Virus record (IMG/VR): IMGVR_UViG_3300025896_000021
Source: a virus
Lineage: Duplodnaviria; Heunggongvirae; Uroviricota; Caudoviricetes
DNA: 64,000 nucleotides
Strand: one strand, 5' to 3'
Shown here: positions 12,286 to 62,830 of the stretch, piece by piece
Numbering within the stretch: position 1 is the first letter of the stretch
Layout of the letters: each line of letters opens with the position of its first letter
Notes under the pieces: generated by a model
The model's database searches: none
What the model was told of the DNA's origin: nothing
The model's input: only the letters and a program-made list of their open reading frames with translations
Made by a program: the position numbers and the translations under genes

Positions 12286-13564
12286 AATTATATGCACGTC
12301 TGATAGTGATGTAGCCACTACGATATCTGCGTACAATACCCGAGGGGATAGATTTCACTTGGGTAGCGACTGGATTAAGTTTCGTATTAAAGATCCTATA
12401 TCTATGCCGCTATCAACTGCATTGGATAAGAATATTGAAGGGTTCATATTCCATCAGATAGGAACTAGGCAAAGTCCTGATTGGTGGACTGGGTTCAAAC
12501 CCGATAGTTATTTGCCTGGCAAGAATCATGCCACCGTAATTGACAAGTTACCCGAAGCCCTACGAGAAAAATTACGCAATCGCACAGCACTAGTTCATTT
12601 CGATCAATCTATGGAAGCTAATCCATTAATTGACAAATGGTTTAATTACTATGAGGCATTTCATAAAGCATTTATGGAACACGATCTACTAGCAGAACAG
12701 TTTGTAATTACAACCTGCAATTTAAGTGAGAGCCGGTTATATGATAAATGGTGCAGTGATAATAATATTACTTCTAAAATGATTATAGTTGAGGCTAACT
12801 TCTTTGCATCAGCTTGCGCTCAGGATCATTTCTTTTTACCAGGCCCGATCACTATACCCTTCATTAAGCATATAGAACATAAAAGAGATAATGAGGTGCA
12901 ATTATTCAATTGCTTGAATAGAGTAGTTAGAGAGCACAGAGTTGCATTTGTAGCCATGCTTAATTACTATGGATTAGTAGACGATAACAAAGTGAGCCAT
13001 GATTTCTATCCCAATCATTTTAAAAATGATATAGTTATCAATGAATTTGCCCCTCATCCTGCATTCGAGCATGCCAATGTTATTAAGACTAATCAGAAAT
13101 TGCCATTGATCCTTGACACCATTCAGTTTCAGGTCAATAAAGCACAGAATCTATACGTAGATGTATATCTAAATACATGGGTTAGCGTCATCACTGAAAC
13201 CTTCTATTATGAATACCCTGATCAGGCAATATTCTTTAGTGAGAAGATATATAAACCCATGAGAGCATTGCATCCTTTTATTATAGTAGGAGCAAAAGGT
13301 AGTCTCCGTGAATTGAAAGCACAGGGGTTTAAGACATTTAGTAATTGGTGGGACGAAAGCTACGATGACATAGAAGAACCTACTGCTAGATTAGAAGCTA
13401 TTTGCAAACTCTTATTGCAGTTGAGCATTAAACCAAAGGCTGAGTGGGAACATCTCTATCCTCATATGGAATCGGTACTGCAACATAACTATCAGCATTT
13501 ACTGAACACCGATTGGTTAAAAGATTTGAAACCTAAAATAATTGACAGGATACAACATGATTGA
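12275..13564 (+). CDS. Putative glycosyltransferase-like protein (SEK-x-x-KP family)
   Basis: VITET...FFSEKIYKP...PFIIVG...GFKTF...DESYD. Confidence 0.5.
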   Translation: MTSKIICTSDSDVATTISAYNTRGDRFHLGSDWIKFRIKDPISMPLSTALDKNIEGFIFHQIGTRQSPDWWTGFKPDSYLPGKNHATVIDKLPEALREKLRNRTALVHFDQSMEANPLIDKWFNYYEAFHKAFMEHDLLAEQFVITTCNLSESRLYDKWCSDNNITSKMIIVEANFFASACAQDHFFLPGPITIPFIKHIEHKRDNEVQLFNCLNRVVREHRVAFVAMLNYYGLVDDNKVSHDFYPNHFKNDIVINEFAPHPAFEHANVIKTNQKLPLILDTIQFQVNKAQNLYVDVYLNTWVSVITETFYYEYPDQAIFFSEKIYKPMRALHPFIIVGAKGSLRELKAQGFKTFSNWWDESYDDIEEPTARLEAICKLLLQLSIKPKAEWEHLYPHMESVLQHNYQHLLNTDWLKDLKPKIIDRIQHD

Positions 13565-14324
13565 TTTTACAAAATACAAAAGATTCTTTGCATTTGGATG
13601 CAGTATGACTCGCTATCAATGGCCTACTTGGGCTGATATGATAGGACAAGAGATCCCTACGTATATTAACTGTGCTCAAAGCGGCGCAGGAAATATCTTT
13701 ATTAGCAATCAAATAGCTGAATCTAATATGCGGTATAAGTTTAACGAAGATGATCTAGTTATGGTTATGTGGAGTACTATCACTAGAGAGGATCGTTACG
13801 TAGAAAACCAATGGCATTGTCATGGGAATATCTATTATCAAAATTTCTATGACAAAGACTTTCTGATGAAGTATGTAGACAACCGTGGACAATTAATTAG
13901 AGACTTGGCATTGATTTCAATGTCAGACTGTTTACTACAAACTACTAAAGCAACATATCATATGTTGTCAATGCAACCATTAGAAGCAGTGATACGTGAC
14001 ACCACTAATAAATTAGAAGGCGAGTACCAAGATGTCCTTGATCTATACAAGCCTGTCATTGACTTGTTAAAGAATGATCTACTTACGATCGGGTGCGATA
14101 GTAAATGGGGGTCACTCCCAATCAGACATAATATTCCGGGCGGTCAAACTCACGACTATCATCCGGCACCTAAGGCGCATTTTAACTTTGTTAATAAAGT
14201 ATTCCCGAACCTTACCTGGTCTCAGAAAACGATTGATTTTATGGAATTTCATGACGATGTGGTAATGAAGGCCAAGTCTCAGGATGACTTAGTTTATCAA
14301 GCGCCCTGGCCACCTAGACTGTAA
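13557..14324 (+). CDS. SGNH/GDSL-like hydrolase or acyltransferase
   Basis: FGCSMT, GAGN and DYHP blocks. Confidence 0.55.
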   Translation: MIDFTKYKRFFAFGCSMTRYQWPTWADMIGQEIPTYINCAQSGAGNIFISNQIAESNMRYKFNEDDLVMVMWSTITREDRYVENQWHCHGNIYYQNFYDKDFLMKYVDNRGQLIRDLALISMSDCLLQTTKATYHMLSMQPLEAVIRDTTNKLEGEYQDVLDLYKPVIDLLKNDLLTIGCDSKWGSLPIRHNIPGGQTHDYHPAPKAHFNFVNKVFPNLTWSQKTIDFMEFHDDVVMKAKSQDDLVYQAPWPPRL

Positions 14325-57511: not shown

Positions 57512-58190
57512 GCCAAAGCATACCTGTGAGTTTTGTCATCGTGAATTTGTGCGAGAACGAACATTAATCAGTCATCTATGTGAACAGAAGCAAAGATGGC
57601 TGAACAAAGATATCAAAGGTAACCGACTAGGCTTTCAGTGTTGGTTGCAGTTCTATACCAAGAACAGCATGAACCGAACTAAGAATAAGACCTATGAAGA
57701 ATTTATTAAGTCTGCATACTACACTGCCTTTGTAAAGTTTGGTACTTATTGTGGTGAAGTCAATGTAGTCAATGTAAGCCGCTTTGTTGATTGGTTACTC
57801 AAAGAAAATATCAAGCTAGACAACTGGCATAGTGATTCAGTTTATACTACCTTCTTGCAGGATTACCTTCGCAAAGAGGATCCGTTTGATGCGATACATC
57901 GTGGCATTGAGCATTCTATAGTATTAGCCAAAGCAGCAAACATTCAGTCACACGACATATTACGATTTGGGAATGTGAACAAAATCTGCTATGCCATAAC
58001 AACGGGCAAGATAAGTCCATGGATGTTGTATCAGAGCAACAGTGGTACCCATTTTCTAGATACTTTAAATCCAGACCATGTTAAAATGATCATAGAGTAC
58101 ATAGACCCGGAACAGTGGGCAATCAAATTTAAACGAGATCCTGAAGTTGCTAAACAAATCAAAGAGTTATTGGGGGCGGGAGGATATTAA
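57486..58190 (+). CDS. Hypothetical protein with N-terminal zinc finger
   Basis: CEFC...HLC; start uncertain. Confidence 0.65.
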   Translation: MKKIVATVEPKHTCEFCHREFVRERTLISHLCEQKQRWLNKDIKGNRLGFQCWLQFYTKNSMNRTKNKTYEEFIKSAYYTAFVKFGTYCGEVNVVNVSRFVDWLLKENIKLDNWHSDSVYTTFLQDYLRKEDPFDAIHRGIEHSIVLAKAANIQSHDILRFGNVNKICYAITTGKISPWMLYQSNSGTHFLDTLNPDHVKMIIEYIDPEQWAIKFKRDPEVAKQIKELLGAGGY

Positions 58191-58365
58191 GCATATAGCA
58201 GAGATTCCTTATACTAGAGTGCAACAGCATGAGGTGTTTGAATGGTTGCTAGTCAATTTAGGATTGCCCGGACACGATTATTATGTCAGACATGATTCTA
58301 CTACGTTAGCAGTACATTTTACAACAGAACAAAATTACATTTGGTTTATATTGAGGTGGTCGTAA
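58147..58365 (+). CDS. LRW-family small protein 1
   Basis: Ends FTTEQNYIWFILRWS; start uncertain. Confidence 0.6.
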   Translation: MLNKSKSYWGREDIKHIAEIPYTRVQQHEVFEWLLVNLGLPGHDYYVRHDSTTLAVHFTTEQNYIWFILRWS

Positions 58366-58658
58366 TGAACGAAAAAATGATTCACGAATTTGTACAACGC
58401 TACGGAGCCAGGGTAGATTACCAACATGGTCGTAGCAGCTTTGAAACCTATAGCAGGTCAATGAATTATTACGATGACCGTAAAAGTGTAGTAGATATTG
58501 AACTATCCAGGCAAGAATTTGAGCATTTAGTTGAAGCAGATCACCATGCAGAAGTTGACTATCGTGTTAGAAGCGAAGAAGCACGCCTGCGCAGTAAATA
58601 CCCTGCGTTGGAAACAGCATATAGCAAATACAAAATGTTATTGGAGCTATACAAATGA
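58365..58658 (+). CDS. Small hypothetical protein (YPAL-x-x-AY-x-x-YKML type)
   Basis: TAATG overlap; GAGGTG RBS. Confidence 0.75.
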   Translation: MNEKMIHEFVQRYGARVDYQHGRSSFETYSRSMNYYDDRKSVVDIELSRQEFEHLVEADHHAEVDYRVRSEEARLRSKYPALETAYSKYKMLLELYK

Positions 58659-59014
58659 ACGATCTGCTACCTTATCAACACGCACTATATGATAAACTGC
58701 AAGCAGGTGGATTTAAGCAAGGAGAACTAGTTGTCTTTGCCGCTGGTCGTCAAACCGGCAAGAGTATGCTCTATAAGACTATGCTTAATGAAATGTATGG
58801 ATCAATGACGAAACAACCTATTTTCTCGGTAAATGGCAAAGCAGAAGTAGATGGTGCAACTTGGTATACTGTACACTGCAATAGAGATATCAGTACATGG
58901 TTGCGTAATCAACCTAAAGAGTGGCATTATGAAGCATTAGCACACGGATGGAGTGGTTGTCAATTTGACATTCACGAAAAACTTTACACAATGTTGATAT
59001 TGCGATGGAGCTAA
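58655..59014 (+). CDS. LRW-family protein with N-terminal Walker A fragment
   Basis: LLPYQ...GGFKQGELVVFAAGRQTGKS; ends MLILRWS. Confidence 0.75.
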   Translation: MNDLLPYQHALYDKLQAGGFKQGELVVFAAGRQTGKSMLYKTMLNEMYGSMTKQPIFSVNGKAEVDGATWYTVHCNRDISTWLRNQPKEWHYEALAHGWSGCQFDIHEKLYTMLILRWS

Positions 59015-59253
59015 AACTAAGTGAAGGCAGAGTCTCGGGGTCACGATACTATACAGTTGATCCTAACCCAAATTGGGATCCTTATTGGTACAATCAAGGT
59101 TGGTTTGATATGGAAATTTGGTGTCTGACGCAATTTGGTCCAACTCCGAATGATGGTGTGTGGACACCCGGTGCTCGTTGGTATATGAACAATAGAAAAT
59201 TTTGGTTCCATAATGAAGCAGACTTATCTTGGTTTATATTGAGGTGGTCATGA
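59005..59253 (+). CDS. LRW-family small protein
   Basis: WCLTQFGP...FHNEADLSWFILRWS. Confidence 0.8.
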   Translation: MELKLSEGRVSGSRYYTVDPNPNWDPYWYNQGWFDMEIWCLTQFGPTPNDGVWTPGARWYMNNRKFWFHNEADLSWFILRWS

Positions 59254-59483
59254 GTAATACAGCAAGCTGGACAACATTCGGCAAGGATCGTTATCATCTC
59301 AACGGTGAGATGGAACGCTGGTGCCTAGACAATGTTGGGAATGGTGGTTGGACTTATAGTACTCCCGAAACTTGGGAAGGTATGGGTGGCAAAGTTTGGA
59401 TTATGCACAGCATGTTTGGTAACACTACCTTTGTATTTAAAGAGTCCAAACACTTAGCTTGGTTTATGTTGAGGTGGGAATGA
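59250..59483 (+). CDS. LRW-family small protein
   Basis: WCLDNVG...FKESKHLAWFMLRWE. Confidence 0.8.
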   Translation: MSNTASWTTFGKDRYHLNGEMERWCLDNVGNGGWTYSTPETWEGMGGKVWIMHSMFGNTTFVFKESKHLAWFMLRWE

Positions 59484-59698
59484 GTTCACTTGTAAGAATA
59501 AAAAACAAGAATGCAATAGCAGCAATGGATATAGTAAGAGAGTTGCGTGAGAAGGGGTATGTACAGGGAATTGATTTTGATTTTAATTACTATCATCAAG
59601 AATCCGATGATCCACAGGACATCACCGAGCAGAGACATACCTTATTCACTTTTTACAAAGAGGGGCTGGCAACATGGTTCAGTTTAAAGTACCTATGA
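59480..59698 (+). CDS. LRW-family small protein (LKY variant)
   Basis: FYKEGLATWFSLKYL. Confidence 0.75.
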   Translation: MSSLVRIKNKNAIAAMDIVRELREKGYVQGIDFDFNYYHQESDDPQDITEQRHTLFTFYKEGLATWFSLKYL

Positions 59699-59952
59699 CA
59701 TTAGAAGATGAGTTGGCGGCGACGGCGGGTAAGATCATGGCAGATGAAATTGACTGGGAAATTTTAGCTAACCTATTAGTTCAATCAGGCTGGTTTATGG
59801 TAGACTTAGATCATTACAGAGACCGTTACCAAAGTATTGACATTGAAACATGGATTGATGAAAACTGCAAGGGCAAATACAAGAAACACAGTAGAACATT
59901 CGTGTTTGAGAAGAAAGAAGATGCAGCTTGGTTTAAGTTAAGGTGGCTATGA
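59695..59952 (+). CDS. LRW-family protein with N-terminal gp23-like helix
   Basis: EDELAATAGKIMADEIDWEIL; ends FEKKEDAAWFKLRWL. Confidence 0.75.
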   Translation: MTLEDELAATAGKIMADEIDWEILANLLVQSGWFMVDLDHYRDRYQSIDIETWIDENCKGKYKKHSRTFVFEKKEDAAWFKLRWL

Positions 59953-60158
59953 GAGTATTGAAGAAAGAACTGTGGCCTTGCAAGGTAGAACTGGATCTAG
60001 ATCAAAGTCAGACCAAGTTGATAGAAATAGAAACTTGGCTAGGCGAACATTATGGTCCTTTAAAGAATCGCTGGAATGTGGTTTATCAATGGGACCATAC
60101 TGTATTTTATTTTCGGCAAGGCACTGATGCTACCATGTTTTCATTGAGGTGGGTATGA
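59949..60158 (+). CDS. LRW-family small protein
   Basis: WLGEHYG...FRQGTDATMFSLRWV. Confidence 0.78.
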   Translation: MRVLKKELWPCKVELDLDQSQTKLIEIETWLGEHYGPLKNRWNVVYQWDHTVFYFRQGTDATMFSLRWV

Positions 60159-60547
60159 TAGAATATATTAAAGACAAGTATTTGACTTGGCGTACTGGTG
60201 TTGATAAACAAACACGTGATCATCGTAAGTGGTATGATGAAACTGTTGTTCAACGTGCTAGTACGATTGAAAATATGTTTATGAACTTCAAGTACATACT
60301 GCCAGTATCTACGAATATATTTGATTTTTCTGAGCCGTTTGGTTGGTACCCCAACAAAGAATTTAGACAGTATATGTGGCCTAACCGAAAGTTAGATGAC
60401 TGTTCCGTGTATTACTTTGCCCGTGGCTATAGAGATAAGTGGGATGGTAAATTTTATATGAATGACTTGCGGCACGACGAAGACCAAGTGTTTGTAGCAA
60501 CTAACAATGAGGTAGATGCTATGATGATAACATTGAAATATTCATGA
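60155..60547 (+). CDS. LRW-family protein (LKY variant)
   Basis: NNEVDAMMITLKYS. Confidence 0.72.
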   Translation: MIEYIKDKYLTWRTGVDKQTRDHRKWYDETVVQRASTIENMFMNFKYILPVSTNIFDFSEPFGWYPNKEFRQYMWPNRKLDDCSVYYFARGYRDKWDGKFYMNDLRHDEDQVFVATNNEVDAMMITLKYS

Positions 60548-60888
60548 CAATAAGCAATTCCACAATTAATATGATTCGTAAGCAATTGCCAATTCTACTG
60601 GCAAAAGCTATTACAGGCGTGCAACCTATGACAGGCCCGGTTGGGGGACTCTTTAGAATGAAATATACCTATACTCCACAATCAAAGTATAAATTTACCC
60701 GTGCCAACTGGTATGTGGCAGAGTTCAACATTAAAGATTATACTGATGTTGTACATTGGTGTAGGGAACAGTTTGGTCCACATCCTCGTAATCCCGATGC
60801 TTGGAGTCGTTGGGAACACAAGTATGAAGATAAGATTTACTTCCGTGATGAGAAAGATTATGCTTGGTTCATGTTGAGGTGGTCGTGA
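60544..60888 (+). CDS. LRW-family protein with N-terminal major-capsid (Gol-like) fragment
   Basis: MIRKQLPILLAKAITGVQPMTGPVG; ends FRDEKDYAWFMLRWS. Confidence 0.8.
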   Translation: MTISNSTINMIRKQLPILLAKAITGVQPMTGPVGGLFRMKYTYTPQSKYKFTRANWYVAEFNIKDYTDVVHWCREQFGPHPRNPDAWSRWEHKYEDKIYFRDEKDYAWFMLRWS

Positions 60889-61136
60889 GAAAATTAATTC
60901 CAAATAATATAACTGTAACTGAACAGTTTCGTATCCGTACTCAGTTTGTTGGTATGGTTGGAAAATGGAAACAAAGTATTCTTACTACCACCAGCAAGAA
61001 ATATCTAGAGTTAGAGTTACAGTGGTTGGAGCGGGACAGCGGTGTTCGCTGTCATTATACTAACAATGGTGAATTGGTAGGATTTAAGTTAGTTGATGAA
61101 AAAATGTATGCTTGGTTTGTGCTGAGGTGGGCATAA
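60885..61136 (+). CDS. LRW-family small protein
   Basis: GTGA overlap; DEKMYAWFVLRWA. Confidence 0.75.
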   Translation: MRKLIPNNITVTEQFRIRTQFVGMVGKWKQSILTTTSKKYLELELQWLERDSGVRCHYTNNGELVGFKLVDEKMYAWFVLRWA

Positions 61137-61141
61137 GTAAC

Positions 61142-61396
61142 ATGACTATTAAATTTACTAGTACAGAGTGGGTAGGTGCTGAACCAGAAAACACTGACAT
61201 TGTGTTAAGATCAGAAGCAGGGTTAACTGGGAAGTTTACGGATTTTTCTAATGAAGTTTTTCTATGGTGCTTTGATAATGGCATTGAAGCAGATATGGTT
61301 GGTAAAAAATATAATAGTGATGACAATAGTGATTATAGTCTATGGAGAATTGAAAATGAACAGCACAGAACTTGGTTTATATTGAGGTGGGCATGA
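61142..61396 (+). CDS. LRW-family small protein
   Basis: WCFDNG...ENEQHRTWFILRWA. Confidence 0.78.
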   Translation: MTIKFTSTEWVGAEPENTDIVLRSEAGLTGKFTDFSNEVFLWCFDNGIEADMVGKKYNSDDNSDYSLWRIENEQHRTWFILRWA

Positions 61397-61605
61397 TCAA
61401 AAGACAATATAACAGATGGCGCTACGGCGACAATAAATCTTACTTTGATAACTTTGTTGATGCACATGGACCAGATGAAGTCATTGAAGATAAATTATTA
61501 TTCTATAAAGCAACTATAGGTAAAAGTAAGAATAAAAATCACAAACTAAATGTCAAGTGGCATGATCCAAAAATGTATGTGGTGTTTGTATTGAGGTGGG
61601 CATGA
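61393..61605 (+). CDS. LRW-family small protein
   Basis: DPKMYVVFVLRWA. Confidence 0.75.
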   Translation: MIKRQYNRWRYGDNKSYFDNFVDAHGPDEVIEDKLLFYKATIGKSKNKNHKLNVKWHDPKMYVVFVLRWA

Positions 61606-61790
61606 AATTACTGGAAGACTACTCAGTATCATTGAGCGCAGACAGATGGATCAAAATAAAAGAACAATTAACAAAAGTTGAATCTAATTCATTGGTGTCT
61701 ATTACTTGGACAGGTCCGTTTGAAAGAACCAGAATATTACGATTTAAATCTGAGAATGATGCATTGATATTTGTATTGAGGTGGTCGTGA
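61602..61790 (+). CDS. LRW-family small protein
   Basis: FKSENDALIFVLRWS. Confidence 0.75.
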   Translation: MKLLEDYSVSLSADRWIKIKEQLTKVESNSLVSITWTGPFERTRILRFKSENDALIFVLRWS

Positions 61791-62071
61791 AGATAGTATG
61801 GGGCAGAAGCATAGGATTTAATATGAGCCTTAACGGTATGGAAAAATTTGGGTCAGGATTTAATCCAATGGAAATTACAATTATCAAAGACGGAGCAGGT
61901 TGCTATCCGTGGACAGAACATTTTGCATGGCTACCAGTTAAAACAATTACAGGTCTACGTGCTTGGGGTGTTAAAGTTTACAAGCGTAGAGTTTGGATGG
62001 TATGGGGTACAGGCTTTCATATGGAACCAGAAACTCAATACGCAACATTGTTTGAGATTCTGCAAGAGTGA
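61787..62071 (+). CDS. Small hypothetical protein (FAWLPV type)
   Basis: GTGA overlap; no LRW end. Confidence 0.7.
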   Translation: MKIVWGRSIGFNMSLNGMEKFGSGFNPMEITIIKDGAGCYPWTEHFAWLPVKTITGLRAWGVKVYKRRVWMVWGTGFHMEPETQYATLFEILQE

Positions 62072-62331
62072 AAAAGCCTAAACCAAAGAAGCCAAAAGCT
62101 AAGATACCCAAAGATGCACTAATAGTTGACTATGGATCGCATCGTGTGATCCTACCTTATAAACACCCATTAGACTTGTATAATAACAAAGAACTTGATA
62201 CAATAAGTGAATGGTGTAAGAAAACTCTCCCAATAGACTCCTGGCGTATCAACAGAGGCTCTTGGCCCGGTCACATCTACTTCTTAAAAGAAAGTTATGT
62301 CACACTGTTTTTATTGATGTGGGCAAAATAA
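62068..62331 (+). CDS. LRW-family small protein (LMW variant)
   Basis: WCKKT...FLKESYVTLFLLMWAK. Confidence 0.72.
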   Translation: MKKPKPKKPKAKIPKDALIVDYGSHRVILPYKHPLDLYNNKELDTISEWCKKTLPIDSWRINRGSWPGHIYFLKESYVTLFLLMWAK

Positions 62332-62609
62332 TGGCAATAAAAAATATATACCCAATGGGTACATTCTCTCAGAAAATTGACTACGAAGAAGTTATCGTAG
62401 ATGCCGCGCCTAGATCGTATGGTAAGAAAACTATATACGTATATCTTTGCAAAGACTTGAAAGAAGATCCTAGAACTATTGTAAAATGGTGCAGAAGAAA
62501 CTTCGGTGACAGAGGCAATGGCTGGGACTTTATGTTGACTTCCGGAAATATCACGATAGAGATATGGAATGACAAATTAAAATTTATGTATGAAATGTGG
62601 AAGACATGA
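62331..62609 (+). CDS. LRW-family small protein (divergent)
   Basis: WCRRNFGDRGNGWDF...FMYEMWKT. Confidence 0.7.
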   Translation: MAIKNIYPMGTFSQKIDYEEVIVDAAPRSYGKKTIYVYLCKDLKEDPRTIVKWCRRNFGDRGNGWDFMLTSGNITIEIWNDKLKFMYEMWKT

Positions 62610-62830
62610 TTCAGAACAAAAAACACGAAAAGTTAAACACTTGGCGCATATTAAAAGACTTAGAACCTGTACAATCACTAAAATGTAGATTGAATTGGCA
62701 TCTATGGACTAACTGGGAAGTATGGGATGGTGAATGGTCTAGAGGTAATGTTAGTCACGCTACCTGCTACTGCGCTAGATGTGGTATGCCTAGAACTGAA
62801 GCACCCTACAGTAAAAGTAAAAAAGGATAA
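62606..62830 (+). CDS. Small Cys/His zinc-binding-like protein
   Basis: CRLNWH...CARCG. Confidence 0.65.
   Translation: MIQNKKHEKLNTWRILKDLEPVQSLKCRLNWHLWTNWEVWDGEWSRGNVSHATCYCARCGMPRTEAPYSKSKKG

Follow-up and report, generated by a model that had tools for sequence, protein, structure and literature searches.

A mini-gene of an uncultured jumbo T4-superfamily phage with a helix very probably derived from the major capsid protein: a candidate self-mimic

Why would a jumbo phage keep, among its replication and recombination genes and distant from its head genes, a small gene whose product begins like one helix of the major capsid protein (MCP)? The question is raised by a stretch of 64,000 nucleotides from an uncultured virus of the Caudoviricetes (IMG/VR record IMGVR_UViG_3300025896_000021), which as a whole we call the window, and by a preliminary description of it, made from the letters alone, in which the open reading frame (ORF) at 59695-59952 (+) was taken to be a segment of the T4 capsid protein gp23 fused to what is here termed the LRW domain. 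This ORF runs from an ATG at 59695 to a TGA at 59950-59952, encodes 85 amino acids, and starts with exactly the peptide quoted in that description; the T4 gp23 stretch that had been set beside it was essentially right too, the homologous stretch of RB5 gp23, which begins at residue 285, showing one difference, at residue 292. The source phage is a jumbo myophage of the T4 superfamily, and its large terminase shares about 50% identity with its counterparts in Sinorhizobium phage Phosso, PA5oct, and Atu_ph07. The gene belongs to a tandem array of LRW mini-genes, the neighbors of which are SSB, UvsX, UvsY, a helicase, an exonuclease, and a piece of a polymerase. It is a real gene under selection in this uncultured phage. 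As a stand-in for whole-genome comparisons we used a related complete phage record of 364 kb (G001). The coordinates of the features discussed are collected in table 1.

Table 1. Features at and around the spine-helix gene in the window, with the evidence for each
Feature	Position	Strand	Evidence
Spine-helix LRW mini-gene, 85 aa	59695..59952 (stop included)	+	ORF listing; orthologues; 163 clusters
Possible 7-codon N-terminal extension	59674..59694	+	Alternative ATG 59674; GAGGGG at 59660-59665
Segment very probably derived from the spine helix, residues 2-27	59698..59775	+	hhalign; long-form Pfam matches; AF2 helix
LRW alpha/beta domain, residues 31-85, ending W-F-x-L-R-W	59785..59949	+	AF2; LRW HMM
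Sister gene, "Gol" N-arm / E-loop start on LRW domain	60544..60888	+	Pfam; PHROG; phmmer
Tandem array of LRW mini-genes with exchangeable N-termini	58147..62830	+	Regex and iterated HMM

The start of the gene can be read in two ways. The alternative ATG has its GAGGGG Shine-Dalgarno-like site eight bases 5' of it, and the seven extension codons share bases with the end of the upstream gene; the product would thus measure 85 or perhaps 92 amino acids, and among orthologues some starts are called from the extension ATG and others directly at the helix. The ATG at 59695, which overlaps the upstream gene as ATGA, lacks a good ribosome site because that gene ends in L-K-Y and not in L-R-W; at the other end, the downstream gene is overlapped at 59943-59952. 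Elsewhere in the array the L-R-W codons double as the Shine-Dalgarno sequence for the next gene. The W-F codons of the LRW tail also generate out-of-frame ATG and TTG triplets at the junctions (window 59660-59700; 58341-61790), so that ORF callers attach spurious leaders of the "MV.IEVV" type. Scans for promoters, terminators, and late motifs gave results at chance level.

Taken by itself, the resemblance of the window copy to a capsid protein is not distinguishable from chance at the level of sequence. Neither Pfam nor PHROGs gave a capsid match with the whole protein (for Pfam Gp23, PF07068, there was none at E<=1, and the family cut-off of 24.4 bits was not reached) or with its first 38 residues, even when matches up to E 10 were admitted; PADLOC and NCBIfam scans of the protein and of its first 38 residues returned nothing meaningful and no capsid. 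A capsid (MCP) HMM built from 12 sequences, that of G001 and those of eleven cultured T4-superfamily phages, scored the protein at -1.1 bits. The profile search of the N-terminus against gp23 models that the preliminary description had advised was, in short, negative for the window copy and positive only with the family profile and among the relatives introduced below. A profile (A2) was made from the first 38 residues of the window protein and of its counterparts at eight viral loci; run against the complete set of 3311 six-frame ORFs of G001, it placed the capsid protein third among the non-self matches (E 0.78); in the reverse search a capsid-helix HMM placed the window ORF first of the 567 window ORFs (E 1.6) and its orthologue second in G001 (E 1.8), the E-values between MCP and window ORF in such single-proteome searches being about 0.7-1.8 overall. 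These reciprocal best matches sit in the right register, yet about one match of such strength would be expected in each proteome, and the capsid hypothesis arose from the same resemblance as was then scored. By hhalign, A2 compared with each of 647 G001 ORFs had the MCP as its top non-self match (score 23.7, the next being 21.7), and A2 (9 sequences) aligned with the capsid alignment over 26 columns on MCP 191-216 with a score of 23.2 (P 1.6e-3), which was reached by 0 of 200 column shuffles (maximum 18.2). The pattern E-[LIV]-x10-E-I-[ND]-x-E-[VI] matches two of the 3878 six-frame ORFs of the window and G001, namely this ORF and the G001 MCP, and residue-shuffled ORFs give 0.01 matches per set; the relaxed spacing was defined post hoc, so that this is a descriptive count and no fair test. 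A weak match of residues 12-26 to phrog_26053 (49 positions, function unknown), seen in four of the nine members with a best E of 0.011, could represent this helix family, in fragmentary form, among cultured or reference phages.

Could the likeness then be that of any acidic amphipathic helix, with no common descent? Such an explanation would fit the lack of a Pfam or PHROG match for the window sequence and its score against the MCP HMM, the E-values of 0.8-1.8 in single-proteome searches, and the nature of the shared motif, which is a simple pattern of four-residue period. The family as a whole gives another answer. Searched against 1.84 billion representatives, A2 recovered 163 clusters at E<=1e-3, all of small proteins (45-154 residues, with the module N-terminal, none of capsid length), and an LRW-like tail ends 132 of the best 150 members. 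The same fusion, for which a search in other phages had been recommended, is found in most of these best members and in eight related viral loci, in each of which (8/8) the spine-helix orthologue lies inside an LRW array. Orthologues of the window gene are 65-92% identical in metagenomes and 28-60% in the eight viral contigs; cultured phages yielded no match to the array by megablast or to the protein by tblastn.

Among the 150 representatives, about a fifth (27) have an N-terminal extension with an L-x-A-x-W-T strand motif, and six of these also have an H-G turn; in the capsid protein, strand motif and H-G turn lie directly upstream of the spine helix. Three relatives pass the Pfam Gp23 cut-off, P0178 (2e-11, 44.3 bits), P0195 (3.2e-10, 40.4 bits), and P0139 (9.8e-6, 25.6 bits), covering profile positions of about 136-223 only, and P0201 falls slightly under it. 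In the search with the N-terminal profile these three had E-values of 1.9e-7, 1.8e-6, and 2.7e-12, respectively; aligned along the whole 85 residues, P0139 shares 48% identity with the window protein (E 2e-34), and P0178 shares 35% over the full length (E 1e-16). The 12-sequence MCP HMM matches 32 of the 150 representatives at E<=1e-3 and 15 at E<=1e-5, the helix-only forms P0234 and P0267 being among the matching representatives. When the 150-sequence alignment was trimmed to the window columns, hhalign returned the same 26 capsid columns with a score of 30.2 (P 2.9e-5), and with a long form as master P was 8.3e-8 over 50 columns. A profile comparison of the family with MCP 160-234 gave 94.8% probability (E 5.5e-8), or 93.2% (E 3.1e-7) when the window protein headed the alignment, and the profile-profile matches always fall on MCP 160/191-216.

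The capsid signal is therefore significant only via the family profile and the longer relatives, and it is on these that the homology to the gp23 helix, first claimed from a motif in one sequence, can be sustained; the motif was insufficient. The objection that the score might not differ from that of generic helices applies to the window copy alone, whereas the family profile does not behave like chance. A collinear strand and HG turn in about a fifth of the relatives, Pfam matches above the cut-off, a score that grows with alignment depth (23.2 to 30.2) and is not approached by shuffled columns, and the reciprocity of the best matches leave a chance likeness very improbable. We consider it very probable, from these sequence comparisons, that the source of residues 2-27 was the P-domain spine helix of a gp23-type MCP. 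The segment first captured was probably longer and ran, at about MCP 160-216, from the E-loop return strand through a short turn into the spine helix; the window copy would have been trimmed at its N-terminus, with loss of the strand. The strand that precedes the helix in the long forms is identified as the E-loop return strand from the MCP alignment, an identity for which we presume HK97-fold topology as well. On a tree, long and short N-termini show 24 changes for 25 long forms, as do shuffled labels, a protein of 85 residues giving a tree without resolution. The strand part seems to have been trimmed in many lineages, so that the full capsid surface is not required.

What has been copied, and what has been kept of it? 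The spine helix and the E-loop are inter-subunit contact elements in shells of the HK97 fold. Residues 2-27 are in register with G001 MCP 191-216 and with about 287-312 of T4 gp23, in which the P-domain spine helix lies at about 285-310. Residues 292, 306, and 307 of T4 gp23 lie within the spine helix, where three of the four cited gp31-bypass substitutions fall, G292S, V306I, and V307I (PMC9546572). In the family alignment (137 sequences; mean column identity 21%), E18, I19, and D20 are each at least 90% conserved, and 12 divergent capsid proteins keep Glu at the equivalent of E18 and Asp or Asn at that of D20. The strict retention of acidic residues suggests that this side of the helix is a binding face. 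The window protein has the N-terminal helix with the near-invariant E-I-D-W-E-I followed by the G-W strand, which places it in the spine-helix subfamily; the family-invariant W21, G32, and W33 are not capsid residues.

The remainder of the protein has another origin. The iterated LRW HMM scores the window protein at 48.5 bits (E 2e-13), as a member of the LRW family. In an AlphaFold2 model from 137 sequences (mean pLDDT 87.5; 66-70 in the first 20 residues and 91-97 for residues 21-85), a helix is predicted at 3-30, strands at 34-37, 62-65, and 68-71, and further helices at 46-57 and 74-84, so that after the long helix the domain follows the order strand, helix, strand, strand, helix. An 85-residue protein modeled as a long helix with a small alpha/beta domain does not have the complete HK97 fold, and the strand segment of P0178, a long form, is modeled as an unstructured tail. 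Searches with the window model gave a best E of 0.27 against the PDB (Foldseek) and, in a wide VIA fold search, Z no higher than 5.8, all matches there being of a generic split beta-alpha-beta kind; in BFVD the model matched only proteins of uncultured phages that are themselves uncharacterised and, weakly, proteins of Atu_ph07 and PA5oct. A capsid origin of the LRW domain was also considered and found unsupported, LRW profiles matching capsid alignments with P of 0.13-0.45 and the predicted secondary structures disagreeing. BLAST and HMMER capsid alignments of P0178 and of one L007 gene run past the helix (G-R-W ... L-F-x-I-E-x-D-A); the capsid segment concerned, which follows the spine helix, we take to be part of a helix, and at its place the LRW model has a beta-hairpin. 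We treat the LRW domain as apparently unrelated to the capsid protein, given these profiles and predicted structures.

The last third of the helix, toward its C-terminus, appears in the model to pack on the LRW domain, with a pLDDT of 92 at the meeting point. Given this docked end and the non-capsid W21, the helix may simply be part of the domain fold: a capsid-derived element exapted for structure, which by now does no more than cap or stabilise the LRW domain, the function residing in the latter. That W21, G32, and W33 are invariant in the family and foreign to the capsid would agree with such a role, and so would the strand part, lost repeatedly or scattered on the tree, and the sister genes, which function with unrelated N-termini. 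Retention of E18 and D20 to at least 90%, mirrored in capsid proteins, would nevertheless seem to exceed the needs of packing. The other contents of the arrays bear on the same point.

By regex and iterated HMM, the array in the window holds at least 10-12 LRW genes, and G001 has 23, of which 22 lie in two arrays. One sister of the window gene (60544-60888) carries the Gol-type region (gp23 about 93-122, G-V-Q-P-M), which the spine-helix protein does not contain: it matches Pfam Gp23 at 1.5e-9, above the cut-off, the PHROG major head protein at 3.5e-9, and, by phmmer, the G001 MCP at 7.7e-8, at MCP 60-102. One array does contain, as had been asserted, two non-overlapping pieces of gp23, MCP 60-102 in this sister and MCP 191-216 in the gene at 59695-59952. 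Their arrangement differs between genomes: a Gol-type LRW gene lies directly upstream of the spine-helix LRW gene in two loci (L003:9163-9510, L007:9631-9984, +), two other LRW genes separate them in the window, and in G001 they belong to different arrays, about 145 kb apart. A further LRW gene of G001, at 201472-201843 (L010:1955-2293, -), contains the conserved motif of the capsid C-terminus around Y-Y-A-P-Y-I-P, and its backbone is that of the window Gol-type gene. HMMER did not detect the motif in this gene; a regex for it matches, among 3878 ORFs, only the MCP and this gene. In 120 homologues of the gene the motif is kept in 21, G-V-Q-P-M occurs in 6, both occur in 3, and a helicase P-loop in many; an N-L-C-K-E-I motif is also common to many of them. 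Judged by its motif, this is probably a third capsid piece, and by HK97 topology all three pieces would lie in the P-domain. Mosaic N-termini are seen in P0355, P0358, P0363, and P0319, which join G-V-Q-P-M to Y-A-P-Y-I-P or a helicase P-loop to G-V-Q-P-M. Outside the main arrays, next to sugar-nucleotide enzyme genes, a gene at L011:1498-1845 (G001 13480-13851, +) carries a capsid N-arm piece (Pfam Gp23 2.6e-7) and has a tail ending L-K-W-G. Inside the window array, a 105-codon ORF (58341-58658, +) has neither an LRW tail nor a family match and may be an unrelated insert. The earlier suggestion of a repeated capture of conserved capsid epitopes is thus borne out as regards capture, with two pieces in the window and a probable third in relatives, but the function as epitopes is putative. 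Three capsid motifs and a helicase P-loop on one carrier, sometimes within one protein, are hard to attribute to structural convenience, and a helix that only caps the LRW domain is in our view an unlikely account of this family.

We tentatively favor a mechanism of self-mimicry, or decoy, which we rate as somewhat less than evenly probable for the spine-helix protein. In its favor we count the retention of E18, I19, and D20, the repeated use of capsid pieces, and the location among replication and recombination genes; against it stand the docked helix end, the non-capsid W21, the trimmed strand part, and the absence of the family from cultured phages. The LRW domain would be a soluble carrier that displays the most conserved, acidic face (E-I-D) of the spine helix, and the helix copy would mimic newly made capsid protein for a factor that reads this region. 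Most likely this factor would be a sensor by which the host detects the capsid P-domain, and the mimic would occupy or blind it. CapRelSJ46 is predicted to contact precisely the P-domain sheet and the spine helix of its capsid trigger (PMC9712102). The sister genes would act likewise, with other pieces of the capsid P-domain and pieces of other core proteins. It is conceivable, if rather doubtful, that whole LRW arrays form a self-mimicry display, in which conserved peptides readable by immunity (three capsid pieces and the helicase P-loop) are set on one carrier, shuffled between tandem genes, and expressed before the real proteins, blinding bacterial sensors.

Two other roles would place the protein in the head pathway itself. 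The helix, together with the strand in long forms, might bind the capsid protein, the scaffold, or a chaperonin and thereby tune or poison the heads of its own or of a co-infecting phage, comparable to microProteins and to the redirection of capsid size by satellites. The contacts made by spine helix and E-loop between subunits count in favor of this idea, the free strand tail of the long-form model could pair with another sheet, and the gp31-bypass substitutions imply that the helix governs the chaperonin dependence of gp23 (PMC9546572). The genes are, however, distant from the head module and set among replication genes, their sisters bear helicase pieces that are foreign to assembly, and a poison made of so conserved a segment would strike the phage's own capsid; we hold a role in capsid folding or assembly to be improbable. 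Alternatively, the capsid piece might be a handle that co-assembles into the prohead, so that an LRW cargo would travel in the head and be injected into the next host. Jumbo phages do package many proteins; yet residues 1-30 have no [LI]-x-E prohead-protease site, the gene lies outside the late or structural region, and the siblings with helicase pieces are not accounted for, which makes a targeting function very improbable.

How does the self-mimic that we favor compare with known systems? With gp23 it shares the register of residues 2-27, to which the long forms add the E-loop return strand and the HG turn; it differs in retaining only 26-55 of about 400-520 capsid residues, without an HK97 fold, in replacing the conserved R/Q after E-I-[ND] by an invariant W, and in being fused to an apparently unrelated domain encoded outside the head module. 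The Gol peptide of T4 gp23, which activates the e14 Lit protease via EF-Tu, is likewise a short conserved capsid segment read outside the assembled capsid. The region homologous to it is in the sister gene at 60544-60888, whereas the spine-helix gene has a different, non-overlapping segment; moreover, Gol is part of the full capsid protein and not a separate gene. The trigger surface of CapRelSJ46 is the same structural region as is copied in the spine-helix family (PMC9712102). That case concerns another capsid family and another host, however; the contact is an AlphaFold prediction supported by escape mutants, and no mimic protein is described there (PMC9712102). The internal proteins of T4 are also small phage proteins with an N-terminal peptide tied to head biology, but the spine-helix protein lacks a protease site, its gene lies outside any late region, and its peptide was copied from the capsid protein itself and is not a scaffold-binding signal. 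MicroProteins (LITTLE ZIPPER, Id-type) are encoded by small genes derived from one interaction element and engage the partners of the parent protein. The likeness lies in a separate small gene made from a single element of a bigger protein. MicroProteins, however, regulate transcription factors in eukaryotes, whereas here the source is a virion protein, the carrier is constant, and many elements stand in a tandem array. As a concept, then, the proposed mimic resembles microProteins and viral mimics; we found no description of capsid-fragment mini-genes in the literature.

Few triggers of bacterial anti-phage immunity are commoner than capsid proteins (CapRel, Lit, PifA, Pycsar, CBASS escape maps). 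The present family, of at least 163 clusters, is a testable candidate for a counter-measure by which phages may shield such constrained proteins through self-mimicry. Even if the decoy idea should prove wrong, the family illustrates that fragments of virion proteins can be exapted, conserved, and shuffled as modules, and that such pieces, missed by single-sequence searches, are exposed only by family profiles and intermediate sequences.
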